A stretch of DNA of 64,000 nt, from contig JAJZMK010000139.1 of the NCBI GenBank assembly GCA_021798275.1, positions 12,408-76,407 on the forward strand, read 5' to 3'. This document shows positions 11,817 to 60,006 of the stretch, in pieces; position 1 is the stretch's first letter; every line of letters begins with the position of its first letter. A program made the translations under genes and the position numbers. The notes beneath the pieces were generated by a model. The model was not told where the DNA came from and did no database searches. It saw only the letters and a program-made list of their open reading frames with translations. This DNA is from Actinomycetes bacterium. GTDB lineage: Bacteria > Actinomycetota > Acidimicrobiia > Acidimicrobiales > Bog-793.

Positions 11817-11937
11817 ACTTTTTTGCCTATTTTTGAGATGTTATTAATGCTATCGTATGACATTGCTTATATTTACCGGCCCGACCGCCGAAAAGCCCCA
11901 CTTTTTATTATCATAGATAGCGCCATGGAGAAACCAA

Positions 11938-23805: not shown

Positions 23806-25449
23806 ATGACGGATACAACCAAACCGCCCAATAAAAACTCCCGCAGCAACACCGTAAGCATCATATCCGGGGAAAAGCGCAAATCCCAGCTGAACAGGGC
23901 TTCATTAAAGACTGCCGGCGGTACCATGTTGTCACGCTTGACGGGGCTGCTCAGATTAATTATTTTGGCATACGCCATCGGCGGCTCCAGGTTGGCGGAC
24001 GCCTTTAACCTTGCCAACAATACCCCCAATATGGTGCACGATCTCATTTTGGGTGGCATAATGGCCGCCACATTTGTGCCCGTCATTGTGGAACGAATGT
24101 CAAAATCTTCCGAAGAAGAGATAAGGGCGTCGATATCGGCCATCATTTCTCTGTCGATAATGATACTGATCGTTTCGACGGCAATTTTTGAGCTGCTGGC
24201 GCCGGGAATCGTCAGTTTGTATACATTCGGAACGCATATCAGCCCCCAAGAAAGATCGGTGGCCACGGAGCTGTTGAGATTTTTTGCCCCGCAGGTACTC
24301 TGCTACGGTTTTTTTGGCCTCATTGCGTCTTTATTGGCCACAAGAGACAAATTCGAAATAGTGGGCGTCGCTCCGGTGACCAACAATATCGTGGGGATTA
24401 TAGTCTTGCTCGTTTTTTCTTTTATGACAAGCAAGACAAACGTAAAGCATCTCAACCTCTCCTCCCCGGAACTTATTTTGTTGGGCGTCGGCACGACGCT
24501 GGCGGTCGCCTCACAGGTATTTGTCATATTGCCCGCGCTCAGAAGAGAAAAATTCAGATTTAGATTTTCCTTCAATTTCCGCGACCCGGCTATACGGATG
24601 ATTGCTTCCCTCTCTTCTTGGACACTGGGATTTGTGTTGGCAAACCAAGCGGCTGTGTTTTTCATAATGGCTCTGGAAGTGAGATCGGGCGTCGGAGGGG
24701 TCAGCGCGTATACTTATGCTTTTACTTTTTTTCAACTCCCTTTCGGCGTCATAGCCGTATCCATAACAAACGTGGTGACCCCGGATTTTGCCAGATTGTA
24801 TTCCTTGAACAAGCCGAGACAATTTGCCAACAGGTTTTCATACGGCGTGCGTCAGGTAATGGCTTTGGTAATTCCGGCGGCAGCCGCTTACTTGATCTTG
24901 GCCAAGCCGATGATAGCCGCCCTGATAGGCCACGGCCGCGAATCCACAACGGCCGTCGATTTGACCGCGGCCACTTTGGTGATGTTTGCTTTGGGCCTGC
25001 CCAGCTTTTGTGTATTCTTTTTGGCCATCAGGGCTTTCCAAGCCATGCACGATACCAAAACGGCTTTTGTTTTATATGTTATTGAAAACGGGGTAAATAT
25101 CATTACCGCAATTTTTTTGTACCGTCACTTCGGCGTCAAAGGTTTGGCGCTTTCTTATTCCATAGCCTATACCGTCGGCGTTTTGGTGGCACTGTTGTTG
25201 ATCAGAGAAAGGCTCGGCAGCATCAGCGGAAAAAAAATTCTTTTACGCTCTTTAGAAGCCCTCGGCTACTCCGTTGTAATGGTATTTGCCGTAGCCTTCA
25301 TAGGAGCGCTTTTCCCGCATGAAAGGGGTGTTTATGAACTGCTCATTTTGATTATGCAGATTGCCGTCGGATTGCTAATATATTTAGGAATCGCAAATAT
25401 TGCGCGCAGCATTATGGTGTGGAAAGCTAAAACATCTCCGCACGTATAA
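23806..25449 (+). CDS. murJ: lipid II flippase MurJ/MviN
   Basis: 547-aa polytopic protein. TAGGTMLSRLTGLLRLIILAYAIG...LADAFNLANNTPNMVHDL is the MurJ N-terminal signature. Confidence 0.9.
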   Translation: MTDTTKPPNKNSRSNTVSIISGEKRKSQLNRASLKTAGGTMLSRLTGLLRLIILAYAIGGSRLADAFNLANNTPNMVHDLILGGIMAATFVPVIVERMSKSSEEEIRASISAIISLSIMILIVSTAIFELLAPGIVSLYTFGTHISPQERSVATELLRFFAPQVLCYGFFGLIASLLATRDKFEIVGVAPVTNNIVGIIVLLVFSFMTSKTNVKHLNLSSPELILLGVGTTLAVASQVFVILPALRREKFRFRFSFNFRDPAIRMIASLSSWTLGFVLANQAAVFFIMALEVRSGVGGVSAYTYAFTFFQLPFGVIAVSITNVVTPDFARLYSLNKPRQFANRFSYGVRQVMALVIPAAAAYLILAKPMIAALIGHGRESTTAVDLTAATLVMFALGLPSFCVFFLAIRAFQAMHDTKTAFVLYVIENGVNIITAIFLYRHFGVKGLALSYSIAYTVGVLVALLLIRERLGSISGKKILLRSLEALGYSVVMVFAVAFIGALFPHERGVYELLILIMQIAVGLLIYLGIANIARSIMVWKAKTSPHV

Positions 25450-39542: not shown

Positions 39543-41468
39543 GTGACCGAACAAGCAGTATTAACTTATGAAGCGGAAGATATAGAAATTCTTGAAGGAT
39601 TGGAACCCGTCCGCAAACGGCCCGGTATGTTTATCGGATCTACTTCCACAACAGGCTTGCACCACTTAATTTGGGAAGTTGTGGATAATTCTGTAGATGA
39701 GGCTATGCAGGGGTTCTGTACAAAAATAATAGTCACACTTCTACAAGACGGCGGCTGCCGTGTTGAGGATAACGGCAGGGGTATTCCCGTGGATCCACAT
39801 CCGAGCGACCCAAGTAAGACGGCGGCGGAAATAGTTTTAACTGTTTTACATGCCGGCGGTAAGTTTGGCGGATCCGGTTATAAGGTATCCGGCGGTCTGC
39901 ACGGGGTCGGGGTATCTGTTGTCAACGCCCTTTCTAAAAGGTTGGATCTTGAAATCGACAGAGGCGGCAGACGGTACGAAATGAAGTTTGCCGGCGGCGG
40001 GACCACCGTGTCAAAATTAAAACCCGTGGGGGACTCACCCAGGAAGCGAACCGGCACCACCGTGGTATTTTGGCCGGACCAGACAATTTTTGACGACGTT
40101 GAGTTTCGCGCCCAGACCGTAATGGAGCGCTTGCAAATAATGGCTTTCCTCAATAAAAGCCTGGAAATTGTCTTTATCGACGAAAGGCAAGACCCGGTTT
40201 TAAGAGAGATTTACAAATATAACGGGGGTATACAAGACTTTGTCAAGCATTTAAATTCCTCCAAAGAACCTCTGTTTAAAAAAATATGTTTTTATGAAGG
40301 GGCAGAACCGGAGCAGGAGGTAGAAATTGCTCTGCAGTGGAATACCACATATTACGAAAGCATCCATTCGTTCGCAAACGGTATATCCACTATTGAGGGC
40401 GGCATGCATGAGGAAGGTTTTAAAAAGGCCCTCACAAACGTAATTAATAAATATGCCAGAGCCCGTAAATTGCTAAAAGATAATGAAGCCAATCTGGACG
40501 GAAAAGATATCAGAGAGGGACTGACTGGTATTATTTCAGTCCGCCTGCGTGATCCGCAGTTTGAAGGGCAGACAAAGTCAAAACTTGGCAATGTTACCAT
40601 CAGATCTTTGGTTGAGAAAACAACAAATGAAAAACTGAGTCAGTGGCTGGAGGAAAATCCAAGGGAGGCATCCCAAATTATCCAAAAAGCCATTTTAGCC
40701 AGCCGCGCCAGACAGGCAGCCGCCAATGCCAGAGACCTGACGCGCAGGAAAAGTGCCATGGGCGGTGCCGGTTTACCAGGCAAACTTATTGACTGTTCTT
40801 CAAAAAACGCCGAAATATCGGAAATCTTTATTGTGGAAGGCAATTCGGCGGGAGGCTCCGCCAAAGACGCGAGGGATCCACACACGCAGGCTATTTTACC
40901 GATCAGAGGTAAAATCCTCAATGTTGAAAAGTCCCGCATGGATAAAATGCTGAAAAACACCGAGATTCAGGCCCTGATTATGGCTATAGGCGGAGGAGTG
41001 GGTGACGATTTTGATATCACAAAAGTGCGTTACCATAAAATAATCATTCTTGCCGACGCAGACGTTGACGGATCACACATCAGGACCCTACTTCTAACCT
41101 TCTTTTTGCGCCAAATGAAACCGTTGATAGAAAGCGGGTTTGTATATGCCGCACAACCGCCCCTGTATTCCACTTTGGTCGGCAACACCAAAACATACCT
41201 AAAAGACGACCAAGCAAAAGCGGAATTTTTGGCTTCCCATCCAAACCACAAAAATGAATTCCAGAGATTAAAAGGTCTCGGAGAAATGGACTTCAGTGAA
41301 TTGGAGGCCACTACCATGAATCCGGCGAAGAGATCCCTGTTGCAAATAAATATGGAGCAGGCAAGTATTGCCGATGAGGTTTGCTCAATTTTGATGGGTG
41401 ACGATGTTGAGGTGCGCAGAAAATTTATACAGCAAAATGCCAAAGATGTGAGGTTTTTAGATGTCTAA
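39543..41468 (+). CDS. gyrB: DNA gyrase subunit B
   Basis: LEGLEPVRKRPGMFIGS, GGLHGVG, EGNSAGGSAK, PIRGKILNVE, and the Toprim motif ILADADVDGSHI. Confidence 0.97.
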   Translation: MTEQAVLTYEAEDIEILEGLEPVRKRPGMFIGSTSTTGLHHLIWEVVDNSVDEAMQGFCTKIIVTLLQDGGCRVEDNGRGIPVDPHPSDPSKTAAEIVLTVLHAGGKFGGSGYKVSGGLHGVGVSVVNALSKRLDLEIDRGGRRYEMKFAGGGTTVSKLKPVGDSPRKRTGTTVVFWPDQTIFDDVEFRAQTVMERLQIMAFLNKSLEIVFIDERQDPVLREIYKYNGGIQDFVKHLNSSKEPLFKKICFYEGAEPEQEVEIALQWNTTYYESIHSFANGISTIEGGMHEEGFKKALTNVINKYARARKLLKDNEANLDGKDIREGLTGIISVRLRDPQFEGQTKSKLGNVTIRSLVEKTTNEKLSQWLEENPREASQIIQKAILASRARQAAANARDLTRRKSAMGGAGLPGKLIDCSSKNAEISEIFIVEGNSAGGSAKDARDPHTQAILPIRGKILNVEKSRMDKMLKNTEIQALIMAIGGGVGDDFDITKVRYHKIIILADADVDGSHIRTLLLTFFLRQMKPLIESGFVYAAQPPLYSTLVGNTKTYLKDDQAKAEFLASHPNHKNEFQRLKGLGEMDFSELEATTMNPAKRSLLQINMEQASIADEVCSILMGDDVEVRRKFIQQNAKDVRFLDV

Positions 41469-43947
41469 AAACACCAAAGGAACCGATCCTTCAGGAACGA
41501 CGGAAGAAACAATTACAGGCACTATTGAGCCTATAGAAATTCAACTCGAGATGGAAAGGTCCTTCCTCGAGTACTCTATGTCCGTTATTATTTCCAGGGC
41601 GTTGCCCGACGTAAGAGACGGTTTGAAACCCGTGCACAGGCGTATTCTGTACGGTATGTGGGATAACGGACACCGTCCGGACAGACCGCATGTAAAATGT
41701 GCAAAAGTCGTGGGTGACGTCATGGGCCGTTTCCATCCCCACGGAGACGCCGCCATATATGACGCTTTGGCCAGAATGGTGCAAGACTTCAGTTTGCGTC
41801 ACCCGTTGATTGACGGTCACGGAAACTTTGGGGCGCCGGGTCCAAACGCCGGTCCGGCGGCAATGAGATACACCGAATCCAGGCTTTCTCAACTCGCGAT
41901 GAGTCTTTTGGAAGACATCAACGAGCAAACTGTTGATTTTGTCCCCAATTACGACGGTTCGGATGAAGAACCGCTCGTATTGCCGGGACGGTTTCCGAAT
42001 CTCTTGGTAAACGGTTCGCAGGGTATTGCCGTGGGAATGGCGACCAATATACCTCCGCATAACCTCGGAGAAATTATTGATGCCACCAAATATCTCATAA
42101 ATAATCCAGATGCCACTTCGGACGATCTTATGAGGTTTGTGAAAGGTCCCGACTTTCCCACGGGTGCGACAATACTGGGACGCCAGGGGATTATCGATGC
42201 GTACAGGACCGGAAGAGGTTCCATTAAACTCAGATCGACGGCTGAAATTATTGAGGGTCGGGGCGGGGTTTCCCAGATCGTAGTCACCGAAATTCCTTAC
42301 CAGGCCTCAGTGGAAGTTATAGCGGAACGTATTGCCGACTTGGTTGAGGGCGGAGACCTGACAGGAATTTCCGATATACAGGACGCCTCTTCCGCCGGTA
42401 AGCCAAAACTTGTCATTACTTGTAAAAGAGATGCCAACGCAAACGTATTGTTGAATAATTTGTATAAGCAAACTCCTCTGCAAAGCTCGTTCGGCATACA
42501 TATGCTGGCTTTGGTTGACGGAGTGCCGCGCTTATTGACTCTCAACAGCGCTTTGGCTGCTTATATAAAACATCAAATTGAAGTAGTTACGAGAAGGTCT
42601 GAATACAGATTAAATAAAGCCAAAGCAAGGGCACATATTGTAGAAGGACTGCTTAAAGCCCTTGACATATTGGACGATGTAATAAATGCCATTCGGTCTT
42701 CTGCTGACCGGCAAGACGCAAAAACGAAACTGACCGCCGAGCCATTTTTATTTTCCGATGAGCAGGCAACACATATCCTGGATATGACCCTCAGCCGTCT
42801 TACGCGGCTTGGACGCAGGGAGCTGGAAGATGAAATGGCGCAATTGAGTGCTCTAATCATAGAATTGGAGTCGATTTTAAGTGACGATGTGCGTCTTCGT
42901 TCGGTTATATCAGAAGAGTTGGAAGTAATTAAGACGAAATTTGCCACCCCAAGAAAAACTATGATCGGTCATGATGTCGGGGAAATAAACACAGAGGACT
43001 TAATTGACGACGAAGAAGTCGTGGTTACCCTAACCAAAGCCGGTTACATAAAAGCCGTACAAACTGATTCCTACAAAACACAGTCGCGCGGCGGCAAAGG
43101 AGTAAGGGCGGCCAGATTAAAAGAAGAGGATATAGTAGAAGAAATTATCCATACCACAACCCATACCCATCTTCTGCTGTTTTCAAACAAAGGTAAGGTT
43201 TACCGCCTGCGTGCCTACGAAGTCCCCATGAAAGAAAGGACTTCGAAAGGAACGGCAATAGTCAACCTGGTTCCTTTGAGTCCCGAAGAAAAAATAGAAG
43301 AAATAGTTGCCACAAAAGACTTCGATCCCGATAAATTCCTGTTGTTTGTGACTAAAAACGGGCAAGTCAAAAAAACTTCTCTGACAGAATACGATAAGAC
43401 AAGAAGAGAAGGCTTTATTGCAATTAACTTACACGACGACGATGAATTGGTCAGGGTGTTTAGTGTGGGGAACAGAGAAGATGTCATAATGGTTTCTAAA
43501 AATGGCATGGCAATTAGGTTCTCCGAAGAAGACATAAGGGCTGTCAGTCGCGCTGCCGCCGGTGTCAGGGGTATGAAATTAAAGTCCGGTGACGAAGTGG
43601 TTTCCAGTTTAGTGGCCAAAGGCGACTCATCTTTGCTTGTTGTCACACTAAACGGTTACGGCAAAAGAATCAAGCTCGACAGTTTTCACTCACAGGCACG
43701 CGGCGGGCAGGGTGTCAGGTGCATACGCTTAACTCAATCAAAAGGCTATGTCGTCTCTGGGTTGATGGCCGATGACGATGATGAAGTTTTGATATCCTCG
43801 TCAACGGGTATCCTGATCAGAACTTCCGTGGGACAAATTACTTCTCAAGGCAGAGCAGCTACAGGAGTAAAAGTGATGAATTTGAGCGACGACCAACATG
43901 TTGCGGCTGTGGCTTTGGTGAAAAACCAAGACCAAGAATACGAATAA
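41461..43947 (+). CDS. gyrA: DNA gyrase subunit A
   Basis: RALPDVRDGLKPVHRRILY, HPHGDAAIYDALARM and AAMRYTE (catalytic Tyr). C-terminal beta-pinwheel repeats. 8-nt overlap with gyrB. Confidence 0.97.
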   Translation: MSKNTKGTDPSGTTEETITGTIEPIEIQLEMERSFLEYSMSVIISRALPDVRDGLKPVHRRILYGMWDNGHRPDRPHVKCAKVVGDVMGRFHPHGDAAIYDALARMVQDFSLRHPLIDGHGNFGAPGPNAGPAAMRYTESRLSQLAMSLLEDINEQTVDFVPNYDGSDEEPLVLPGRFPNLLVNGSQGIAVGMATNIPPHNLGEIIDATKYLINNPDATSDDLMRFVKGPDFPTGATILGRQGIIDAYRTGRGSIKLRSTAEIIEGRGGVSQIVVTEIPYQASVEVIAERIADLVEGGDLTGISDIQDASSAGKPKLVITCKRDANANVLLNNLYKQTPLQSSFGIHMLALVDGVPRLLTLNSALAAYIKHQIEVVTRRSEYRLNKAKARAHIVEGLLKALDILDDVINAIRSSADRQDAKTKLTAEPFLFSDEQATHILDMTLSRLTRLGRRELEDEMAQLSALIIELESILSDDVRLRSVISEELEVIKTKFATPRKTMIGHDVGEINTEDLIDDEEVVVTLTKAGYIKAVQTDSYKTQSRGGKGVRAARLKEEDIVEEIIHTTTHTHLLLFSNKGKVYRLRAYEVPMKERTSKGTAIVNLVPLSPEEKIEEIVATKDFDPDKFLLFVTKNGQVKKTSLTEYDKTRREGFIAINLHDDDELVRVFSVGNREDVIMVSKNGMAIRFSEEDIRAVSRAAAGVRGMKLKSGDEVVSSLVAKGDSSLLVVTLNGYGKRIKLDSFHSQARGGQGVRCIRLTQSKGYVVSGLMADDDDEVLISSSTGILIRTSVGQITSQGRAATGVKVMNLSDDQHVAAVALVKNQDQEYE

Positions 43948-44003: not shown

Positions 44004-44077
44004 GGGGCTATAGCTCAGTCGGTTAGAGCGCAGCACTGATAATGCTGAGGTCGCTGGTTCGATTCCAGCTAGCCCCA
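44004..44077 (+). tRNA. tRNA-Ile (anticodon GAT)
   Basis: Hand-folded cloverleaf of 74 nt. Acceptor GGGGCTA/TAGCCCC, anticodon loop CTGATAA, T-loop TTCGATT. No encoded CCA. Confidence 0.93.
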
Positions 44078-44240
44078 CTACGTAAGCGAGAGGGGGTGAG
44101 TTGTGCCTAAGAAAAGTTCAAGCTATACAAAGGTGTTGCCCAATGGCAATCGTGTGACTATTAAGATCAGCGGTATTGGGTCATACAACGACTCGATTCC
44201 CGAGTGGGCGAAACACTAGTACTAATATATCCCGCAACTT

Positions 44241-48463: not shown

Positions 48464-51400
48464 TTATCTCGTGTTTGGGTAGGCTTTAGCCGGTTTGGCG
48501 GCCATTTCTTCGTATTGTCGCCACTTTCTGTCGACAGCCTCTTCCGCAAGTTTTAAGAGTATTTCGGATTCCTCGGGGTTGCTGCGGCTGAGGGCGTTGT
48601 AACGAATTTCTTCCAAAGCGTATTTTTTGAACGAAATTCTTTTTCTTGGGGAGTCTAAAAGAAAAGGCTTCTCTCCTTTGGACTGCAATACGGGATCGTA
48701 TCTAAAAAGAGGCCAGTATCCGCTGGCTGTGGCCCGATATTGTTGTTCAAGACCGCACCTCATATCAATCCCGTGCGCTATACAATGGCTGTAAGCGATA
48801 ATTAAAGAAGGTCCCGGGTAGGCTTCTGCTTCTCTGAAGGCAAGCAAAGTTTGTTTTTTATCAGCGCCCATGGCAACTTTTGACACATATACGTTGCCGT
48901 AAGATATGGCTTGCAATGCCAAATCTTTTTTCTCCAGTTTTTTGCCTGATGCCGCAAATTTGGCTATGGACCCGAGAGGCGTGGACTTACTCATCTGCCC
49001 GCCGGTATTGGAGTAAACTTCTGTGTCCAAAACAAGGATGTTGACATTTCTGCCGGAGGCAAGCACGTGGTCCAAGCCTCCGGCCCCTATGTCGTAAGCC
49101 CAGCCGTCGCCGCCCACTATCCAAACGCTTTTGCGCAATAAGGCATCTGCCACACTTTCCAGATCTCTGGCGCCGACAGAGTCGATTGCCGTCAATTTTT
49201 CTCTCAGGAGGTCTATTCTCTGACGTTGCAATTCCAATTCCGATTCTGTTGCCTGGGGTGAGGATGTAATTTCAGCTACGAAACCGCTGCCTAAAAGTTC
49301 AGACAAATCCTGCAGGTGCCGCAGAGCTATGTTGTACTGGTGGTCTACGGCAAGTCTGATGCCCAAACCGAATTCGGCATTATCCTCAAACAGTGAATTT
49401 GACCAAGCCGGTCCCCGCCCGAATTCGTTGGTGGTCCACGGAGTGGTGGGCAGGTTGCCACCATAGATGGATGAGCATCCTGTGGCATTGGCAATTATTG
49501 CCCGGTCGCCAAAGAGTTGGGACAGAAGTTTCAAGTAAGGAGTCTCTCCGCACCCGCTGCAGGCGCCGGAGAACTCAAACAGCGGTTTTAGGTATTGGGT
49601 TCCGCGGACCGTCGAGAAATCTATTCTTTCTCTTCGCGGATAAGCTAAAGTTTCAAAAAAAGCCACATTTTCCTTTTCCTGCGCAAGGAGCGGCTCTTTG
49701 TCAACCAAATTGATTGCCTTGCTGTTTGTGGCGGATGTGACGGGGCAGGCTTCCACACAAAGTCCGCACCCGGTGCAGTCTTCGGAATAGACTTGCAGGG
49801 TGTACATCATGTCCGGCAAACCGCGCTCGATGAGCGGTGCTGATTTAAATTTAGCGGGCGCTCCGGCAATGTCTCGACTGTCGTAATACTTGCTTCTTAT
49901 CACGCTGTGAGGACAAACAAAACTGCAATTGCCGCATTGTATGCAAATGTCGGGATCCCATTCGGCAACTATATCAGATATGTTTCTCTTCTCAAGGCAA
50001 GCTGTTCCGGTCGGCCAAGTTCCGTCCGCCGGGAGCAAACTGACTGGGAGATCCTCCCCCTCACCTTTCATTAACTTCAGAGTTACCCTATCGATAAAAG
50101 TATCCTCGCTTGCGACATAAGGGTCTGAATCGGAATCACGATAATCTTCATCTGAGGGTATCTCTACTTTTTCCAAATTCTCCAAAGCGGCTTCAATGGC
50201 AGCCAGGTTGGCATCCACAACCTTTTGTCCCCGCTTGCTGTAACTTTTGACGATATATTCCGCAATTTTTTTCTTGGCCGTATCGGTACCGATGATGTTG
50301 GATATGGCGAAAAAGCTTGTTTGCAGAATTATATTAATTCTTGATCCGAGCCCAAGTTCCCTTGCTATTTTTGTGGCATTGATGACATACAAGGAAATAT
50401 TTTTCTCTCTCAGTCTTTTTTTAATGCCGGCATCCAAATGAGCACACACTTCTTTTGCCGTATATGGCGAGTTGAGAAGTAAGGTTGAGGATTTATCGGC
50501 ACGATCCAAAATTTCCTTGTTGCCCACCAAGTTGAATTGATGGCATCCGATAAAAGAAGCGTGTTCAATCAGATAGGGGGCTTTTATGGGAGATTTTCCG
50601 AATCGCAGATGCGATGCAGTTTGTGAGCCAGATTTTTTGGAGTCGTAAACAAAATATCCCTGTGCGTAATATCCCAGGGAGCCCAATATCTTAATGGTAT
50701 TTTTATTGGCGCCTACGGTTCCGTCCGATCCCAAACCATAAAAAACAGCTTCTATGGTATCTGGCGATCTGGTTTCAAAATCTTTACTGTAGCGTATGCT
50801 GGAAAACGTAACATCATCATTGATCCCGACGGTAAATCTGCGTTTTGGTGAATCCGAGTCCAGCGTGTCAAAGACGGCTTTCACCATTCCCGGAGTAAAC
50901 TCTTTGGAAGACAGTCCGTAACGCCCGCCGATGACAGACGGTCGGGCATTACTGCTGACAAAGGACTCCGCTATCAGTGCTTCAATGTCTAAAAACAAAG
51001 GTTCTCCGAGCGAACCAGGTTCTTTCGTCCTGTCCAAAACGGCTATTTTTTCAACCGTAGGCGGCAAAGCTTCTATGATTTGCGCCGCCGGGAAAGGCCT
51101 GTAGAGCCTGATTGCCAAAAGACCGACTTTCTCTCCGAAGTTATTTAAGTACTGAACCGTTGTCGCCGTGGTTTCGATGGAAGAACCCATGGCGACAATG
51201 ACTTTTGTCGCCGCAGGATCCCCGAAGTAGTCAACCAGATGGTATGACCTGTTTGTCAGTCCGGCAAAGTCGTCCATTGCCTCTTGGACAATACCCGGGG
51301 TTTTCTCATAGTAAATGTTTACGGCTTCGCGCGTTTGAAAGAATACGTCGGGGTTTTGGGAAGTGCCCCTGATAATTGGGTGTTCGGGAGACAAAGCACG

Positions 51401-52006
51401 CTTTCTGTTCTGATGTATCAAATCGATAGGCACCAATTGTCTGAGAACTTCATCTTCGATGTACTCTATGGTGTTGAGTTCGTGAGAGGTTCTGAATCCG
51501 TCAAAAAAATGGAGAAAAGGAATTTTTGATTTCAGGGTTGCCAATTGGGAGACTGCCGCAAGGTCATGAGCTTCTTGTACTGATGCGGATGCCAACATGG
51601 CTATTCCGGTCTGGCGTAGTGCCATCACATCGGAATGATCTCCAAAAATCGACAGAGTCGAAGTCGCCAGGGAACGGGCCGCCACATGGATGACGGTTGA
51701 GGACAATTCTCCGGTTATTTTATAAATATCCGGAATCATTAACAATAAGCCTTGTGAAGCAGTAAAAGTTGTTCCGAGTGCGCCTCCCTGGAGTATGCCG
51801 TGCAAGGCCCCGGCAGCGCCTCCTTCGCTTTGCATTTCTATGACCTGGGGTATAGAGCCGTAGATATTCCTCTTTTTTTGGGTAGACCACTCATCCGTCA
51901 GTTCGGCCATGGGGGAAGATGGGGTAATTGGGTAAATGGCACAAAGTTCGTTTAGCCTATATGCCACCGAAGCCGCCGCTTCGTTTCCGTCTACTGTTAT
52001 TTGCAT
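48464..52006 (-). CDS. nifJ: pyruvate:ferredoxin (flavodoxin) oxidoreductase, homodimeric type
   Basis: 1180 aa. N-terminus DGNEAAASVAYRLNELCAIYPITPSS. Ferredoxin domain CIQCGNCSFVCPH and CTGCGLCVEACP. TPP motif GGDGWAYDIG. Confidence 0.95.
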   Translation of the reverse strand: MQITVDGNEAAASVAYRLNELCAIYPITPSSPMAELTDEWSTQKKRNIYGSIPQVIEMQSEGGAAGALHGILQGGALGTTFTASQGLLLMIPDIYKITGELSSTVIHVAARSLATSTLSIFGDHSDVMALRQTGIAMLASASVQEAHDLAAVSQLATLKSKIPFLHFFDGFRTSHELNTIEYIEDEVLRQLVPIDLIHQNRKRALSPEHPIIRGTSQNPDVFFQTREAVNIYYEKTPGIVQEAMDDFAGLTNRSYHLVDYFGDPAATKVIVAMGSSIETTATTVQYLNNFGEKVGLLAIRLYRPFPAAQIIEALPPTVEKIAVLDRTKEPGSLGEPLFLDIEALIAESFVSSNARPSVIGGRYGLSSKEFTPGMVKAVFDTLDSDSPKRRFTVGINDDVTFSSIRYSKDFETRSPDTIEAVFYGLGSDGTVGANKNTIKILGSLGYYAQGYFVYDSKKSGSQTASHLRFGKSPIKAPYLIEHASFIGCHQFNLVGNKEILDRADKSSTLLLNSPYTAKEVCAHLDAGIKKRLREKNISLYVINATKIARELGLGSRINIILQTSFFAISNIIGTDTAKKKIAEYIVKSYSKRGQKVVDANLAAIEAALENLEKVEIPSDEDYRDSDSDPYVASEDTFIDRVTLKLMKGEGEDLPVSLLPADGTWPTGTACLEKRNISDIVAEWDPDICIQCGNCSFVCPHSVIRSKYYDSRDIAGAPAKFKSAPLIERGLPDMMYTLQVYSEDCTGCGLCVEACPVTSATNSKAINLVDKEPLLAQEKENVAFFETLAYPRRERIDFSTVRGTQYLKPLFEFSGACSGCGETPYLKLLSQLFGDRAIIANATGCSSIYGGNLPTTPWTTNEFGRGPAWSNSLFEDNAEFGLGIRLAVDHQYNIALRHLQDLSELLGSGFVAEITSSPQATESELELQRQRIDLLREKLTAIDSVGARDLESVADALLRKSVWIVGGDGWAYDIGAGGLDHVLASGRNVNILVLDTEVYSNTGGQMSKSTPLGSIAKFAASGKKLEKKDLALQAISYGNVYVSKVAMGADKKQTLLAFREAEAYPGPSLIIAYSHCIAHGIDMRCGLEQQYRATASGYWPLFRYDPVLQSKGEKPFLLDSPRKRISFKKYALEEIRYNALSRSNPEESEILLKLAEEAVDRKWRQYEEMAAKPAKAYPNTR

Positions 52007-52009
52007 AAC

Positions 52010-53647
52010 CTAACCTTTCACATCCTCTACCATTTCAATGGCGTGCACCGGGCACTGTTCAAAACATGCTCTGCAACCTGTACACAAGTTGTAATCAAAT
52101 TTGTAACGGTTACCTTTGCCGAGTTTTATAACTGCATGTTCGGGGCACGCGGCAAAGCAGCCGTCGCATTCAAAGCAATTGCCACACGATAAACAGCGTG
52201 CGGCTTCAAAGTGAGCCTCTTCCTCGGATAGAGTGGCGACCACCTCATCAAAATTTTTAACTCTATCCTGCGGGGATTTATGCTGAGGTTTTTCAGCAAG
52301 GAGGTCTTTGAAATACCAAAGATTCAAGTCTGATATATGAACAACATCATGTTTCCCGAGAAGTGTAAATTCATTTCCTGATAACCAGGTATCGATATTT
52401 TTTGCGGCTTTTTTGCCGTGCCCTATGGCAATTGTGACGGTTTTTTCCGCCGGCACCATATCGCCGCCGGCAAAAATACCCGGATGGCCAGTCATCATTT
52501 GGTTATTTACGACAACGGTACCGTCGTTTTTAAACTCTATGCCTTGCACCGAAGCCAAAAAGTCTGTTTCACTGTTTTGGCCCAACGCAAGGATGACGCT
52601 GTCGGCGGAAACGGTCTCTTTTTTTCCGGTCGGTTTGGGTACGCCGTTTTCATCCAATTCCATGAGTTCCAACTCCATGCCTTTTTCCCCGAAGGCGGTA
52701 ATGGTTCGCAACCAATGGATTTGGACTCCCTCAAGAAGTGCCTCGTCGGCTTCTTCTTCGTGAGCCGGCATCTGCTCTCTGGTTCTTCTGTAGACGATTA
52801 CGGTTTCTTCCGCACCAAGCCGTTTTGCCGTACGGGCGGCGTCCATGGCCGTATTGCCGCCGCCGTAAACCGCAACCTTGCGTCCTATGAGCGGCCTTTC
52901 TCCTTCTGCGACGTTGTGCAAGAATTGGATGGCATCCACTATTTTTGAGGCGTCACGGGTGGGTATATTGACGCGTTTTGCCAGATGGGCACCCACGGCC
53001 ACGAAAACGGCATCGAAACCGCCGCTTTCTTTTTCTTCCAAAACATCGTTGACTTTATGACTGAGTTTGAAACTCACGCCCAGCTCTTCCAGCCGGTTGA
53101 TTTCAGCGTCGAGGACTTCCCTTGGCAGACGGTATGAAGGGATTCCGTACCTCATCATCCCCCCCGCTTGTTTGCCCGCGTCTCTGACTTCGACTTGGTG
53201 GCCGAGAAGTGTTAAGTGATAAGCGGCGGATAAACCGGAGGGACCGGCACCTATCACCAAAACCTTTTTGCCGGAGTTCTTCTTTGGCTTGACGAAAGAA
53301 AGTTTTTCCTTCAGGGCAAAATCGCCCACAAATCTTTCTACATTATGGACTCCTATCGACGTGTCCAAATCCTTACGGTTGCAGGCATCCTCGCACGGGT
53401 GATAGCACACCCTTCCGTGGACAGCAGGGAAAGGATTGTCTTTGGTGATTATTTCCCAAGCTTTTTGATAATTGTGCTGCTCTGTTTCATAGAGCCAAGC
53501 TTGGATATTTTCACCGGCGGGACACGCTTGGTTGCAGGGCGGCAATAGATCCAGGTAAACAGGCTTAAAAGCCCTTACGGGCCCGCTTCTGTAGGTAGGT
53601 TCGGATAGGTTGGGTACGGTTGTGATATCAAATGGCATGTCTGGCAC
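52010..53647 (-). CDS. GltD/PreT-like NAD(P)H-dependent oxidoreductase with C-terminal 2x[4Fe-4S] ferredoxin domain
   Basis: N-terminal CNQACPAGE...CYHPCEDAC cluster motifs. Dinucleotide folds VIGAGPSGLSAAY and VYGGGNTAMD. C-terminal CLSCGNCFECDGCFAACP and CTGCRACFEQCP. Confidence 0.85.
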   Translation of the reverse strand: MPDMPFDITTVPNLSEPTYRSGPVRAFKPVYLDLLPPCNQACPAGENIQAWLYETEQHNYQKAWEIITKDNPFPAVHGRVCYHPCEDACNRKDLDTSIGVHNVERFVGDFALKEKLSFVKPKKNSGKKVLVIGAGPSGLSAAYHLTLLGHQVEVRDAGKQAGGMMRYGIPSYRLPREVLDAEINRLEELGVSFKLSHKVNDVLEEKESGGFDAVFVAVGAHLAKRVNIPTRDASKIVDAIQFLHNVAEGERPLIGRKVAVYGGGNTAMDAARTAKRLGAEETVIVYRRTREQMPAHEEEADEALLEGVQIHWLRTITAFGEKGMELELMELDENGVPKPTGKKETVSADSVILALGQNSETDFLASVQGIEFKNDGTVVVNNQMMTGHPGIFAGGDMVPAEKTVTIAIGHGKKAAKNIDTWLSGNEFTLLGKHDVVHISDLNLWYFKDLLAEKPQHKSPQDRVKNFDEVVATLSEEEAHFEAARCLSCGNCFECDGCFAACPEHAVIKLGKGNRYKFDYNLCTGCRACFEQCPVHAIEMVEDVKG

Positions 53648-55010: not shown

Positions 55011-55304
55011 ATGACTTTTGACAAAACTGCGCTACCGGATTTAGAAGCCACCGCAGAGCAAATGGGTTCAAGTTTTGTGTGGATCGTGATCGTTTGGAAT
55101 GACCCCATCAATTTAATGAGTTATGTAACGTACGTGTTCCAAAAGTTATTCGGATATTCGCAGGCCAAAGCTCAGAAGCTTATGCTTGATGTACACAATA
55201 AAGGCAGGGCGGTCGTTTCCAGCGGAACGCGCGAAAAGGCGGAATTGGACGTACTGCGTCTGCACGGTTACGGTTTGTGGGCTACACTTGAAAAATCGAC
55301 GTGA
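55011..55304 (+). CDS. clpS: ATP-dependent Clp protease adaptor ClpS
   Basis: [44 protein letters not shown] is the ClpS core. Confidence 0.92.
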
Positions 55305-56101: not shown

Positions 56102-57466
56102 GTGACTTCTATGGCTAAAGCTCGCATTTTGGCATTGATGGGCTCCGGAGAAATAGCCCCCAAATTGGTGAAAACACACAGGGAAATAATCACCAAATTC
56201 CATAATCCGAAAATAGTATTAATTGCCACTCCGTATAGGTTTCAGGAAAATGTGAAAGAACTGTCGGAAAAAATTATTGATTTTTTTCGGGTAAGCCTCT
56301 TGTCTGAAGTAATACCGGTGGATCTGCCTGACGGCAAAGACGATTCATACAGTTACGTTCTTCCGGAACTTGACGATGACTTAAAATACAACAAGTTATT
56401 AAAGGAAGCCGATATCGTTTTTTCGGGCCCGGGGAGTCCCAGTTATGCTCTATATAGGTGGCAAAAGAGTTTAACTAAAGACCTGCTGACGGAAAAATTA
56501 TTAAATGGCGGTGCTGTGGTTTTTTCAAGCGCAGCGGTTTTGACACTGGGAGCCTACAGTGTTCCGGTCTATGAAATTTATAAAGCCGGGGAAGCGCCGA
56601 AATGGTTAAAAGGATTAAATATTTTAGAGGCGATAGGCATTCGAGCAGCCCTTATTCCTCACTATAATAATGCGGAAGGTGGGACGCACGACACCAGATT
56701 TTGTTACCTGGGGGAACGTCGACTTGCTTTTTTAGAAGATCAATTGCCCCGTGACACAGTAATTTTGGGTATCGACGAACACACGTGCCTGTCGGTAGAT
56801 TTGGATGAATCCGCCGTCAAAGTGAGCGGTTTGGGTAATGTCACCGTCAGGTACAGAGGTGAATCCCGCATAATAAATACCGGCACAACTTTGAAACTCG
56901 ACGGTTTGCGGGAAATAATTTCCTCTCTGATGCCGGACGGCAAAGAAGACCCCTTTTCTCGCAAGGTATTTTCTGGTCGGCAACACCAAGAGACAACCGA
57001 ATTTGAGCAAACCGGCTTGCATGACAATGGAGTGAATGCTGACAACCGAGGCGCGGATACCGAACTCCGAGAGGTATTTTTGGGGTTTGAAGAAGAGTTT
57101 GTCCACTCGCTAAATGAAAAAGATGCCGATAAAATTTTTTCCGTATTGAGTGAAGCTTTAAATTTTCTCATGAGCGCCTTTTTGGCAGCCGATCCGCTTG
57201 CCGAAGAAAGCATAAAGTTTGCTTTGAATAAACTAAAAAGCAGGTTTTTGCTTCTTCTTCGAGAGCTTGTCTCTTGTGCCAAGAATGGCTTTGTCGACAA
57301 AAAAATACTTTACGCTCCTCTCGTGAACGGTTTGATTGCAATGCGCAATGAGGCAAGAGACGCCAATCTTTATCATGAGGCAGATAGACTGAGGGATATT
57401 TTATTGTCGGCAGGGATCCAGATCCAAGATACAGCCGACATTACAACTTGGAACTTTAAAGACTAA
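56102..57466 (+). CDS. hypothetical fusion protein: peptidase-S51/GATase1-like N-domain + CysRS-type C-terminal module
   Basis: GTG start, 454 aa. The N-terminal half contains ILALMGSGE, ADIVFSGPGSPSYAL, GGAVVFSSAAVLTLGA and IPHYNN. The C-terminal end EARDANLYHEADRLRDILLSAGIQIQDTADITTWNF resembles the extreme C-terminus of bacterial CysRS. Confidence 0.6.
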   Translation: MTSMAKARILALMGSGEIAPKLVKTHREIITKFHNPKIVLIATPYRFQENVKELSEKIIDFFRVSLLSEVIPVDLPDGKDDSYSYVLPELDDDLKYNKLLKEADIVFSGPGSPSYALYRWQKSLTKDLLTEKLLNGGAVVFSSAAVLTLGAYSVPVYEIYKAGEAPKWLKGLNILEAIGIRAALIPHYNNAEGGTHDTRFCYLGERRLAFLEDQLPRDTVILGIDEHTCLSVDLDESAVKVSGLGNVTVRYRGESRIINTGTTLKLDGLREIISSLMPDGKEDPFSRKVFSGRQHQETTEFEQTGLHDNGVNADNRGADTELREVFLGFEEEFVHSLNEKDADKIFSVLSEALNFLMSAFLAADPLAEESIKFALNKLKSRFLLLLRELVSCAKNGFVDKKILYAPLVNGLIAMRNEARDANLYHEADRLRDILLSAGIQIQDTADITTWNFKD

Positions 57467-57583
57467 GAAGAAGCGGTGGCTTGTGATGCAAAAACACGCC
57501 GACTGTAGGATTAGTGGCCAAATTAAGCCGTCTTGATAAATCGATACTGTTTAAACTGCTAATCTCTATTTAGTCATTAACCG

Positions 57584-57659
57584 GCCCCCATCGTCTAGAG
57601 GCCTAGGACGTCGCCCTTTCAAGGCGGAAGCACGGGTCCGAATCCCGTTGGGGGTGCCA
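57584..57659 (+). tRNA. tRNA-Glu (anticodon TTC), CCA encoded
   Basis: Hand fold of 76 nt. Acceptor GCCCCCA/TGGGGGT (G1:U72), anticodon loop CTTTCAA, T-arm ACGGG-TCCGAAT-CCCGT, then GCCA. Confidence 0.88.
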
Positions 57660-57668
57660 ACCGTACCG

Positions 57669-57708
57669 CCTTACGAGATCAGGAATTATTACCCCTGATG
57701 TCGTAAGG
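57669..57708 (+). other. long hairpin immediately after tRNA-Glu (15-bp stem with 1 mismatch, 10-nt loop)
   Basis: CCTTACGAGATCAGG ... CCTGATGTCGTAAGG. No U-tract follows, so it is not a canonical intrinsic terminator. Confidence 0.4.
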
Positions 57709-58155
57709 TTGCCGTCAGAGTAGATTAGTGCAGCATAAACTATCTAAATACTTAAAGCCCAGAAAGAAAGTTACTGGCAGGCAGATGTTGAAAAGTTATT
57801 TTCGATTGCCTCAGGCTGGGATGCAAAAGAGTTTTTCATGGCCAATCCGTCAGTAGTGTTTGATGCGAAGCCACGATAATAAAGAGCGTCGCGGCAAAAG
57901 CGCTTTCGATCAGCGAAGAGCAGCCAATTGTTCAGATCAGCCGTCACGAAGACCGGTATTATAAATTATCGATTAAAGAGGAAAGCGGCGTAAGCCAGGT
58001 ATTGGCGGAGTTGCTGTCCGGTACCACTTCTTATGAAATTTTTAAGATGAGCTTTTATTTTTTGATTAGCAAAAAATACAAAAAATAACTTTTTAAGGTG
58101 CTACTTTTAAACAACAGATATGAGGCGTCATTTACTGGCACCCCATATAAAGTAA

Positions 58156-58230
58156 GGACCTGTGGTGCAGCTCGGAGTGCACGCCGGCCTGTCAAGCCGG
58201 AGGTCGCGGGTTCAAATCCCGTCAGGTCCG
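58156..58230 (+). tRNA. tRNA-Asp (anticodon GTC)
   Basis: Hand fold of 75 nt. Acceptor GGACCTG/CAGGTCC, anticodon loop CTGTCAA, T-loop TTCAAAT. Confidence 0.9.
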
Positions 58231-58273
58231 CTACAACTTTGACGGATACTTGTTTTCTGTGTCCGCCAAGTAT

Positions 58274-58346
58274 GGTCGGGTAGCTCAGTTGGCAGAGCGC
58301 GCGCCTGAAAAGCGTGAGGTCACCGGATCGACGCCGGTCCCGACCA
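58274..58346 (+). tRNA. tRNA-Phe (anticodon GAA)
   Basis: Hand fold of 73 nt. Acceptor GGTCGGG/CCCGACC, anticodon loop CTGAAAA, T-arm ACCGG-ATCGACG-CCGGT. Confidence 0.88.
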
Positions 58347-58424
58347 CAAATTTTTTAACCAAATTTCCCCGTTAAGGCCATTACGGGAGTGTTTTGTCCG
58401 GGAAAACCGACGTATATATTCGAT

Positions 58425-58584: not shown

Positions 58585-60006
58585 ATGATAGGTGCGAAAA
58601 TGAAGCAAGTTTTGCAGATTGCAAAAAAACATATCTTGGTAAGTACCCTCTTTCTATCAGGTATGACGGCGGTAGTGGGCGGTGTCGCGGTATCCAATGT
58701 AGGTGCCGCTGTGTCTGCATCTTCCACTGCCCCCATCAACTCTTTGTATCACCGGTACCAGTATAAATCGCGTCATCTTATCGGATTTGAGTCGGGTGTC
58801 AGCAGACCGGCAGGCGGATGTACTTACGAAAACCATCTCATTTCCTGTACTGCCGGAAGGGGAAATATGGGGATGCCTTTCCCTCCGGAACCGCCGATGC
58901 ATCCGGGCTATCCAAATATGCCTTTCCCTCCGGAACCGCCGATGCATCCGGGCTATCCAAATATGCCTTTCCCTTCCACATCAACAACCTGTCAAGCGGC
59001 CTCATCGGGGGATGCCGTACCGACGGCACGGGCTGTGGTGTCAATAAAAATGACGCAATATGGGCCGGTCCTGGCTGTCGGGAGTGGGTCTAATGTCAAT
59101 TGCTCCCTATATACTCTGACGGCCGACAACACCGCCGCGTCGCCGGCAACCTACGGTTGTACCGATACACCTGTAGTGCCGAATTTGGGTTCATGTGCCC
59201 AAAATATATGGCCGGCCTTGCTTTCTGACGGTACCCCTGTAGCGGGAATGGGCGTAAACCCCCATTTATTGGGAATCGTCAAAAGAACGGACGTCATCAG
59301 CGGGAAAACCGTTGATCAGGTAACTTATAATGGGCATCCCTTGTATCAATTCTTCCTCGACAAGAAATCAAACGATCTGAACGGTGCTGGTTTGAACGAC
59401 GGTTTAGCCGGCGGTGTTTGGTATCTCATGTCTCCGATGGGTATACCTGCCGCAGGTCATGCTACCGTGACACTCGAGGGCACGACAAATGCCGGTGTTG
59501 TATTATCCGTTTTGATGAATACCGGAGCCGGTTATAAAGAGTATCCGGTATATACGTTCAGTGGAGATGCAAACGGTAAAGTATCGTGCACAGGGAAGTG
59601 CGCTCAATTCTGGCCGCCCGTTTTGACATCGGAATTTCCTATAGCCACGAACGGCGTAAACCAAATGCTTTTGGGAGTTACCAGGAATTCAGCCGGCAGT
59701 CTGCAAGTCACTTATAACGGGCATCCCTTGTATCTGTTCATAAAAGATGCTGCCATCAGCGCCGCAGGTGAAGCTACAGGCAATGGCTTGGGGGCTTTGT
59801 TTGGCGGTACGTTTGAGACCGTTAACCCCGCGACACCCGTGACTTCTTCCACTACCACAACAACGGCGGCTCCGACCACAACAACGGCGGCTCCGACCAC
59901 AACAACGGCGGCTCCGACCACAACAACAAAGGCTCCGACCACAACAACGGCGGCTCCGACCACAACAACGGCGGCTCCGACCACAACAACAAATCTATAC
60001 GGTTAG
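58585..60006 (+). CDS. secreted repeat protein with two Yx(FWY)xxD-motif (COG4315-like) domains, a Pro-rich tandem repeat and a C-terminal T/A/P repeat
   Basis: Signal/TM ILVSTLFLSGMTAVVGGVAVSNVGAAVSA. The motif occurs twice: VTYNGHPLYQFFLD and VTYNGHPLYLFIKD. PFPPEPPMHPGYPNM occurs twice. The tail is a TTTTAAP repeat. Confidence 0.75.
   Translation: MIGAKMKQVLQIAKKHILVSTLFLSGMTAVVGGVAVSNVGAAVSASSTAPINSLYHRYQYKSRHLIGFESGVSRPAGGCTYENHLISCTAGRGNMGMPFPPEPPMHPGYPNMPFPPEPPMHPGYPNMPFPSTSTTCQAASSGDAVPTARAVVSIKMTQYGPVLAVGSGSNVNCSLYTLTADNTAASPATYGCTDTPVVPNLGSCAQNIWPALLSDGTPVAGMGVNPHLLGIVKRTDVISGKTVDQVTYNGHPLYQFFLDKKSNDLNGAGLNDGLAGGVWYLMSPMGIPAAGHATVTLEGTTNAGVVLSVLMNTGAGYKEYPVYTFSGDANGKVSCTGKCAQFWPPVLTSEFPIATNGVNQMLLGVTRNSAGSLQVTYNGHPLYLFIKDAAISAAGEATGNGLGALFGGTFETVNPATPVTSSTTTTTAAPTTTTAAPTTTTAAPTTTTKAPTTTTAAPTTTTAAPTTTTNLYG
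58873..58974 (+). repeat. perfect 45-bp tandem repeat, about 2.3 copies (coding MPFPPEPPMHPGYPN)
   Basis: Positions 58873-58917 and 58918-58962 are identical. A 12-nt partial third copy follows. Confidence 0.9.
59854..59991 (+). repeat. 21-bp tandem repeat ACCACAACAACGGCGGCTCCG, about 6.5 copies (coding TTTTAAP)
   Basis: Six full units were read directly. Unit 4 carries GGC>AAA, changing TAAP to TKAP. Confidence 0.9.

Follow-up and report, generated by a model that had tools for sequence, protein, structure and literature searches.

Two groups of described proteins lie closest to the gene analyzed here. Peptidases of the S51 family carry a GxSAG nucleophile elbow and a "GG" motif as their hallmarks (PMC11078827), and in Escherichia coli PepE the catalytic triad is formed by S120, H157 and E192 (PMC9239234). 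All S51 enzymes characterized so far cut at the carbonyl group of Asp residues (PMC9239234, PMC11078827), and one of them, MccG, hydrolyzes processed microcin C, an aspartyl-adenylate mimic (PMC9239234). The second group is cysteinyl-tRNA synthetase (CysRS). In the E. coli CysRS-tRNA(Cys) complex, R423, R427, W432, A435, D436, R439 and D451 surround the anticodon nucleotide G34 (PMC12684709). Altering R427, W432, D436 and R439 re-targets the enzyme to the CUA anticodon (PMC13449415), so that these four residues set anticodon specificity and are not merely structural. We analyzed a stretch of 64,000 nucleotides from a member of the Acidimicrobiales (contig JAJZMK010000139.1, positions 12,408 to 76,407), hereafter the window. 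It encodes a protein, X, in which an S51 peptidase fold is fused to the C-terminal module of CysRS. The Ser-His-acid triad of the former and the G34 pocket of the latter are both conserved; we tentatively propose that X is a tRNA-directed hydrolase.

The N-terminal domain of X has the S51 peptidase fold

The AlphaFold2 model of full-length X, with a mean predicted local distance difference test score (pLDDT) of 86.9 and a predicted template modeling score (pTM) of 0.80, consists of an α/β domain (residues 1–283), a disordered segment (residues 284–312), four long helices and a small C-terminal α/β unit. When the model is compared with the PDB by Foldseek, the best match is 6nqc, an S51 protein from an acI-B1 actinobacterium (E = 1.9e-14, TM 0.78), followed by pseudo-CphB, cyanophycinase and the PepE enzymes of Xenopus and Salmonella at E = 1e-11 to 1e-9; the S51 structures at or below about 1e-9 include, besides 6nqc, 7uqv, 3en0, 7uqw, 7ffp, 6a4r and 1fy2. 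In sequence searches of the PDB, the single X sequence reaches 6nqc only below threshold (E = 0.01), the full-length family profile, built from 54 homologs, reaches it at E = 2e-6 over profile positions 10–264, and a profile of the N-terminal domain alone at E = 4e-8. The N-terminal part of X is an S51 peptidase fold. An earlier interpretation of the window, made from the sequence alone and hereafter the sequence-only reading, had assigned an S51 or class I GATase-like fold to the first 230 residues or so; the fold is upheld by the structural matches, the profiles and the triad, and its length is corrected to about 283 residues.

X stands at a distance from the described S51 models. The X sequence has no match to PF03575 (Peptidase_S51) at E ≤ 1, and just five of the 54 family members reach this model at E ≤ 0.01 (best 1.7e-4). 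A role as cyanophycinase was considered and rejected: the TIGR02069 model gives 16.3 bits (E = 5e-3) over residues 218–250 only, a stretch that takes in Asp225-Glu226, against a cutoff of 126.6 bits, and no cyanophycin synthetase was seen among the genes around X in the loci compared.

The predicted catalytic residues are Ser143 in the motif F-[A/S]-S-A-A, His187 in IPHYNN and the acidic pair Asp225-Glu226 in GIDEHT; their conservation is given in Table 1. The HMMER alignment to 6nqc places S143 on the Ser of "CSAG", H187 on the His of "IPHFNK" and D225-E226 on "GIDE". An hhalign comparison with E. coli PepE, itself weak (E = 0.12), equates H187 with H157 and E226 with E192 and puts the nucleophile within one residue of S120. 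On these alignments, X has an intact Ser-His-acid triad. The N-terminal domain counts about 60 invariant residues in the family, and the segment PHYNNAEGGTHDTRFCYLGERRL (residues 186–208) is nearly invariant; it is absent from 6nqc and has a recognizable counterpart in residues 156–178 of E. coli PepE. The GxSAG elbow and the "GG" motif are absent from the family, which has the invariant F-[A/S]-S-A-A and G-P-G-S-P instead.

A zinc or other metal site formed by the family invariants E192, H196, D197, C201 and H227 was also considered, prompted by Znu-type transporter genes that adjoin X in about 19 loci (ZnuABC on the opposite strand in one group of loci). A joint site was rejected, C201, H196 and H227 being substituted independently of one another.

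The C-terminal module derives from CysRS and keeps its G34 pocket

The S51 domain is followed by a linker of unconserved sequence, 3 to 86 residues long in the family (median 24.5), and by two units that together correspond to the C-terminal part of CysRS: a helical bundle and a small anticodon-binding domain. Against Pfam CysS_C (PF23493) the single X sequence scores 18.6 bits (E = 0.002), under the gathering score of 23. Judged from the profile matches, membership of the C-terminal domain in CysS_C holds at the family level: 45 of the 54 members match PF23493 (best E = 3.9e-11) and many carry a precomputed assignment to it. The full-length family profile retrieves from the PDB the CysRS structures 8qhp (E = 1.5e-12) and E. 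coli 1li5/1u0b (E = 2e-10), profile positions 313–437 corresponding to CysRS residues 357–486 and 336–459, respectively. A profile of the C-terminal part, searched against the entire PDB, finds CysRS chains only (E = 5.5e-14 to 9e-5), over the helical bundle and the anticodon-binding domain. In the Foldseek search with the full model, the CysRS-tRNA(Cys) complex 1u0b comes after the S51 structures at a probability of 0.99. The homology to CysRS that the sequence-only reading had noticed in the last 130 residues or so is thus confirmed, the family profile extending it over both units.

The TIGR00435 cysS model aligns residues 322–451 of X to model positions 343–464 (E = 4e-4). X as a CysRS was rejected, as the score is 19.4 bits against a cutoff of 340, the Rossmann catalytic core is missing and residues 1–283 form the S51 fold.

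The residues that contact G34 in E. coli CysRS were transferred to X through HMMER alignments. All seven are retained: R423 corresponds to R415 of X (243 of 243 members), R427 to R419 (242/243), D436 to D428 (243/243), R439 to R431 (243/243) and D451 to D443 (242/242), while W432 corresponds to position 424, a Tyr here and W, F or Y in 242/243, and A435 to A427 (A in 83%, S in 14%). In addition, W450 of X, equivalent to W458 of CysRS, is kept in 238 of 239 members. By contrast with these residues, the helices that flank them are poorly conserved. The case for a module that still reads a G34 anticodon loop is made most strongly by this selective invariance at the RNA contacts. At the position of CysRS E450 (the glutamate of "lED") X family members mostly have Arg (64%), Gln (11%) or His (8%), and Glu in 6%; a "specificity switch" from E450 to Arg was rejected, since the position varies inside the family.

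Taken with the predicted triad, the pocket suggests that X may be a hydrolase that recognizes tRNA(Cys), or a different tRNA with G34, and cleaves off the acyl group it bears, a reading that we favor with less than even confidence. The CysRS-derived module would dock on the anticodon arm of a G34 tRNA, most probably tRNA(Cys) with its GCA anticodon, by means of the CysRS-type Arg/Arg/aromatic/Ala/Asp/Arg/Asp pocket. The S51 domain, tethered by the flexible linker, would attack the tRNA-borne acyl group, most likely the aminoacyl ester at A76, through Ser143-His187-Glu226 (or Asp225). An acyl-enzyme would form and then be hydrolyzed, which would make X a single-tRNA-specific deacylase acting in quality control or salvage. 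Since aspartyl carbonyls are where the characterized S51 enzymes cut, X may favor an acidic, Asp-like acyl group: on tRNA(Cys) this could be cysteine sulfinate or phosphoserine, and on a different G34 tRNA it could be Asp. MccG is a precedent for an aminoacyl-nucleotide as the substrate of an S51 enzyme, and the crenarchaeal ThrRS-ed, a trans-acting deacylase made of an editing domain and an anticodon-binding domain, is one for the pairing of a hydrolase with an anticodon reader.

X is a large uncharacterized family

The sequence-only reading had taken X for an orphan, which the family searches refute. A word-indexed search scored at least 6,972 homologs at E ≤ 1e-3, an exhaustive profile search returned 738 clusters (50% identity) at E ≤ 1e-30 and 1,866 at E ≤ 1e-10, and a pattern scan over one genome per species found X encoded in at least 596 species genomes. 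Among the matches listed, the carriers belong mainly to the Acidimicrobiia and other Actinomycetota, with further members in Chloroflexota, Methylomirabilota/Rokubacteria and Dormibacterota; the cultured Salinilacustrithrix flava EGI L10123 is one of them (NZ_CP133888.1, about 1,145,098–1,146,333; locus L040). The C-terminal module is present in 243 of 268 sampled members, the remainder being mostly fragments, and the S51-CysRS fusion has been maintained in about 740 clusters from four phyla or more.

Source annotations name these proteins "hypothetical protein", "cyanophycinase-like exopeptidase" (JGI) or "CysS/YqeB C-terminal domain-containing protein". The last of these NCBI protein names was followed as a lead to YqeB and rejected, the translation of E. 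coli YqeB having no CysS_C-like C-terminus. The view that no characterized protein shares this architecture holds for the PDB, Pfam, NCBIfam and the searched literature, where none was found; the literature search on the architecture of X or on 6nqc returned nothing relevant. X is a large uncharacterized family with a new domain combination.

Upstream gene neighborhood

Gene context was compared by clustering the open reading frames (ORFs) of 72 X loci, and two same-strand arrangements recur. In the first, which is that of the window, X is preceded by ctaA, clpS and a DUF2017 gene, in this order; in the second, X directly follows abH, a gene for an α/β-hydrolase in which the GQSWG nucleophile motif is intact and an HD.HAQ motif is also present. 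The abH-X pair occurs in 28 loci, often with an overlap of 4 bp or 1 bp, and spans at least three phyla, including loci labeled Chloroflexota or Methylomirabilota (L054, L057 and L018). A specific function name for abH was dropped, as only generic similarities to α/β-hydrolases and esterases were found. In 14 loci, among them the window, the gene for the N-degron adaptor ClpS precedes X on the same strand, either directly or with a single gene in between, and the DUF2017 gene occupies position −1 or −2 in 21 loci. The complete series of ClpS, DUF2017, abH and X is found in two loci (L014 and L021). The ClpS association is missing in most loci outside the Acidimicrobiia, whereas the abH association persists there.

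In the window, clpS and the DUF2017 gene share 4 bp, and 93 bp separate the end of the latter from X. The clpS-aosR(DUF2017) operon of Mycobacterium tuberculosis runs on into rv1333-mec-cysO-cysM, and AosR activates cysteine biosynthesis (PMC8280819). X thus sits in the position of the M. tuberculosis cysteine-biosynthesis genes, an analogy that hints at a link to cysteine metabolism. The hint is weakened by the window DUF2017 protein itself, which scores only 32.5 bits against the AosR model NF051854 (cutoff 260) and has no cysteine anywhere in its 235 residues; being cysteine-free, it cannot sense redox state through cysteines as M. tuberculosis AosR does, for which an "AxxxA" mutant was tested.

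In two Chloroflexota loci, a heliorhodopsin gene (NF038020, E = 3e-77) lies directly upstream of X on the same strand (L067, 5041–5913; L053, 533–1345). In the window, upstream of ctaA, two minus-strand ORFs that overlap by 4 bp occupy positions 48464–53647: one of 1180 residues, which by the look of its sequence alone resembles a pyruvate:ferredoxin-oxidoreductase-type enzyme, and one of 545 residues encoding a ferredoxin/FAD oxidoreductase (Fer4_20, Pyr_redox_2).

Genomic setting and downstream tRNA genes

The ORF and all motifs quoted in the sequence-only reading are present in the translation. Besides the GTG start, an ATG at 56111 would give a protein of 451 residues and is the start used by public gene calls; this 451-residue protein (P0001) is found 100% identical on 13 public contigs, GCA_027365915.1 and GCA_027408335.1 among the assemblies. 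The window has a G+C content of 46.8% and, with dnaA, gyrB, gyrA and dnaB, represents the chromosomal origin region. Membership of the locus in a defense system was rejected, PADLOC giving no match for X, abH or the DUF2017 protein and the locus belonging to the core chromosome near oriC.

Table 1. Coordinates of gene X, its predicted domains and residues, and other features of the window; the last row refers to a separate locus.
Feature	Position	Strand	Evidence or remark
dnaB	14024-15400		
CCA-adding/poly(A) polymerase-family gene	19980-21386		
murJ	23806-25449		
dnaA	35226-36635		
gyrB	39543-41468		
gyrA	41461-43947		
tRNA-Ile	44004-44078		
clpS (N-degron adaptor)	55011..55304	+	Pfam ClpS E=2e-22, NF000668 E=1e-41
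DUF2017 protein (AosR family), 235 aa	55301..56008	+	Pfam DUF2017 E=3.6e-24
Gene X, S51-hydrolase/CysRS-anticodon-module fusion	56102..57466	+	ORF, 454 aa from GTG 56102
S51-type serine hydrolase domain, residues 1-283	56102..56950	+	Foldseek, N-domain profile, conservation
Ser143 codon, predicted nucleophile (F-[A/S]-S-A-A)	56528..56530	+	268/268 members
His187 codon, predicted general base (IPHYNN)	56660..56662	+	268/268 members
Asp225-Glu226 codons, predicted triad acid (GIDEHT)	56774..56779	+	D225 264/266, E226 253/266
Disordered linker, residues 284-312	56951..57037	+	pLDDT <50
Helical bundle, homologous to CysRS DALR-2-type domain, residues 313-399	57038..57298	+	Family profile, model
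CysS_C-type anticodon-binding domain with G34 pocket, residues 400-454	57299..57463	+	PF23493, conservation
X-to-tRNA-Glu spacer, probable tRNA promoter/leader	57467..57583	+	Conservation vs L004
tRNA-Glu(UUC)	57584-57659	+	ARAGORN, Rfam
tRNA-Asp(GUC)	58156-58231	+	ARAGORN, Rfam
tRNA-Phe(GAA)	58274-58347	+	ARAGORN, Rfam
E. coli PepE gene used in the comparison (L085)	11454-12143	-	

As the sequence-only reading had stated, tRNA-Glu begins 118 bp past the end of the X stop codon and is followed by tRNA-Asp and tRNA-Phe. When downstream tRNA content was counted over 60 X loci, tRNA-Glu was found immediately downstream on the same strand in about 29, with Asp and Phe joining in about 13. At the DNA level, the X-to-tRNA-Glu spacer shares 87% identity with that of another locus, L004, rising to nearly 100% over its last 90 nt, whereas the two X proteins are 65% identical; being more conserved than gene X, it is probably an independent conserved tRNA promoter, although a simple sigma-70 scan of the spacer gave no match. 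A strong hairpin (57668–57709, −25 kcal/mol, z = −7.3) stands right after tRNA-Glu, which fits a signal for tRNA processing or termination. Because of the spacer conservation, the hairpin and the identity of the tRNAs, which are never Cys, the adjacency is best taken as synteny and not as functional evidence, and co-transcription of X with tRNA-Glu was rejected as such evidence. The link to neighboring tRNAs implied in the sequence-only reading is accordingly abandoned: adjacency is real in about half of the loci and involves Glu, Asp and Phe.

The region downstream of X is variable. The spacer between tRNA-Glu and tRNA-Asp measures 496 bp in the window (57660–58155) and is also long in L004 (7525–8038); in most other Acidimicrobiia loci it is 10–60 bp, and in a few, such as L006, far longer. 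Only two blocks of the 496-bp spacer are conserved, the hairpin and an A/T-rich block at about 58070–58125, just upstream of tRNA-Asp and possibly its promoter; the middle part is unconserved and contains short ORFs only. A gene just past the tRNA cluster (58585–60006) encodes a secreted protein of the Lipoprotein_15-repeat type, in which the segment "MPFPPEPPMHPGYPN" is duplicated and the C-terminus carries Thr/Pro-rich repeats of the TTTTAAP/TTTTKAP type; the protein measures 430 or 486 residues in the otherwise identical contigs L001 and L002. Tyrosine recombinase/integrase genes (cluster c19) occur near X in L025 (7585–8814), L007, L040 and L070, and in all of these but L007 they lie on its downstream side. 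Added to the variable gene content past X, they suggest that the flank of the tRNA cluster is possibly a hot spot of integration. In L014 (7344–8822) and L021 (7390–8823), an amidase-signature enzyme (GatA-like, E = 2e-108 to PRK07869) is encoded between X and tRNA-Glu; both loci also carry the ClpS/DUF2017-abH-X series, and the amidase may be another hydrolase of the neighborhood.

Proposed function and alternatives

The sequence-only reading had proposed a hydrolase or transferase directed at tRNA or aminoacyl-tRNA. Retention of the full G34 pocket strengthens this proposal, and the function itself stays a prediction: we infer tRNA binding, the identity of the tRNA, the aminoacyl-ester substrate and the nature of the acyl group from sequence. 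Several observations weigh against a hydrolase aimed at the acyl group of a G34 tRNA. Both glycines of GxSxG are missing from the nucleophile elbow. When the C-terminal module was modeled separately (pLDDT 88, pTM 0.52), 1u0b was again the top Foldseek match, at E = 0.03, a probability of 0.96 and an r.m.s. deviation of 13.5 Å; the structural match, strong for the N-terminal part, is here consistent but weak, so that the kinship with CysRS rests on the sequence profiles. The module carries a net negative charge (mean −7; about −2 for the anticodon-binding domain alone), whereas the equivalent domain of E. coli CysRS is about neutral by our own count. Some members have linkers of just 3–10 residues; with a distance of about 75 Å between the anticodon and the CCA end of a tRNA, such short linkers make the reach to the CCA end questionable unless X dimerizes or the tRNA bends. 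GCA specificity is likely but falls short of being established, the contact equivalents covering G34 only and not C35 or A36. Finally, a tRNA-Cys gene was found near X in none of the 60 loci examined, and the conserved partners abH, ClpS and DUF2017 are no specific sign of translation quality control.

A first alternative is an allosteric role of the module, in which the S51 domain would cleave a small peptide or amide, and the CysRS module would sense uncharged tRNA(Cys) and switch the hydrolase. The substrate might be a dipeptide with Asp or Cys, or a conjugate of a low-molecular-weight thiol, and amino-acid release would be tied to the charging state of the tRNA. In its favor, X has a bona fide S51 fold, small Asp-peptides are substrates of the characterized S51 members and the G34 pocket is kept. 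Linkers of 3–10 residues suit allosteric coupling more than a long reach to the CCA end, and X is translationally coupled to abH, a hydrolase of the small-molecule type, in the 28 loci and at least three phyla mentioned above. We nevertheless regard this explanation as unlikely. The N-terminal domain, with its many invariant residues, is far more conserved than typical dipeptidases, which suggests a large and specific substrate, and we know of no bacterial precedent for a peptidase gated by tRNA. The place of X at the point where the M. tuberculosis ClpS-DUF2017 operon enters the cysteine-biosynthesis genes (PMC8280819) would also favor it, but the absence of cysteine from the window DUF2017 protein and its score far under the AosR cutoff speak against that connection.

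It is quite improbable that the C-terminal module no longer binds tRNA and has become a dimerization, protein-binding or ligand-binding domain, X then being a specialized exopeptidase of the cyanophycinase/PepE kind. The acidic module and its weak structural match to CysRS would agree with it, as would annotations that say just "cyanophycinase-like exopeptidase" or "hypothetical". So would 6nqc, the closest relative of solved structure, which shares the GSGE motif yet stands alone as an S51 protein, free of any tRNA module. It is hard to reconcile, however, with anticodon-contact residues that are kept over about 740 divergent clusters while the flanking helices drift, and X lies far below the cyanophycinase (16 versus 126.6 bits) and PF03575 thresholds, with no cyanophycin synthetase noticed in its neighborhoods.

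Lastly, Ser143 might take over an aminoacyl group, for example Cys, from the tRNA and pass it to an amine instead of water, the acceptor being a protein N-terminus (of the N-degron type, in connection with ClpS) or a small molecule. Aminolysis is within the reach of serine acyl-enzymes, and conservation of the anticodon pocket implies that a tRNA is selected. ClpS is encoded close upstream in the 14 loci, and in E. coli the gene aat for the aminoacyl-tRNA-protein transferase is a near neighbor of clpS-clpA. The aminoacyl-tRNA transferase folds known to us are GNAT-like (Aat, Bpt/Ate1, Fem), Rossmann (cyclodipeptide synthase) or LanB, and none is S51. Such a transferase is very unlikely, since no feature that would bind an acceptor was identified, most loci outside the Acidimicrobiia lack the ClpS association while that with abH persists there, and ClpS and DUF2017 form a general actinobacterial pair regardless of X (PMC8280819).

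The hydrolase aimed at a G34 tRNA thus remains the reading we prefer. A broader and more doubtful claim is that X founds a new translation-associated enzyme class, a one-tRNA-specific hydrolase or transferase assembled from an S51 peptidase and a CysRS anticodon reader and acting on acyl-tRNA(Cys). Its role could possibly be to clear tRNA(Cys) of a damaged or non-cognate residue that resembles Asp, for example cysteine sulfinate or phosphoserine.

Comparison with known systems

With the S51 enzymes PepE, CphB, MccG and 6nqc, X shares the fold and the equivalent Ser-His-Glu/Asp triad positions; the GSGE N-terminal motif is common to X and 6nqc, and a PH[FY]xNA...H..[DE]TR segment to X and PepE. 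It differs from them by its elbow and by the "GPGSP" in place of "GG", stays below the PF03575 and TIGR02069 thresholds, and alone possesses a C-terminal aminoacyl-tRNA synthetase anticodon module of about 140 residues, which is found in no characterized S51 enzyme. This module is homologous to the C-terminal part of CysRS (about residues 326–461 in E. coli, PDB 1U0B) over some 125 residues (E = 1e-12 to 5e-14), the terminal G-T-x-W motif being kept together with the G34 contacts. The Rossmann catalytic domain, the CP domain and the stem-contact fold of CysRS are replaced in X by the S51 hydrolase and the disordered linker, so that X cannot aminoacylate. X would be a natural case of a synthetase recognition module redeployed to direct another chemistry to one tRNA. 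If X acts on acyl-tRNA(Cys), its compact, portable tRNA(Cys)-targeting module could be of use in synthetic biology.

The trans-editing factors AlaX, YbaK/ProXp, DTD and ThrRS-ed resemble X in the proposed logic only, that of a free-standing tRNA-specific hydrolase. Their catalytic folds are unrelated to the S51 serine-peptidase fold of X, for which no homology to a synthetase editing domain or to the DTD fold was found in Pfam, NCBIfam or the PDB sequence and fold searches. To our knowledge, CysRS is among the few synthetases without editing and has itself no editing domain from which an X-like factor could derive, and we know of no trans-acting factor dedicated to tRNA(Cys). If X does deacylate acyl-tRNA(Cys) or transfer its acyl group, it would represent a new fold among aminoacyl-tRNA hydrolases and could connect cysteine or redox stress with translation in abundant, poorly studied soil and freshwater phyla. 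Removal of an Asp-like residue would be a quality-control step new to cysteine decoding and widespread in Acidimicrobiia, Chloroflexota, Methylomirabilota and Dormibacterota.

Sensors of the GCN2 type join a synthetase-like tRNA-binding domain to an unrelated catalytic domain, a logic shared by the alternative in which uncharged tRNA(Cys) would gate the S51 hydrolase. GCN2 is eukaryotic, carries a complete HisRS-like domain and regulates a kinase, and it has no sequence relationship to X. If the CysRS-derived module of X senses uncharged tRNA, the fusion would be a bacterial counterpart of this logic.

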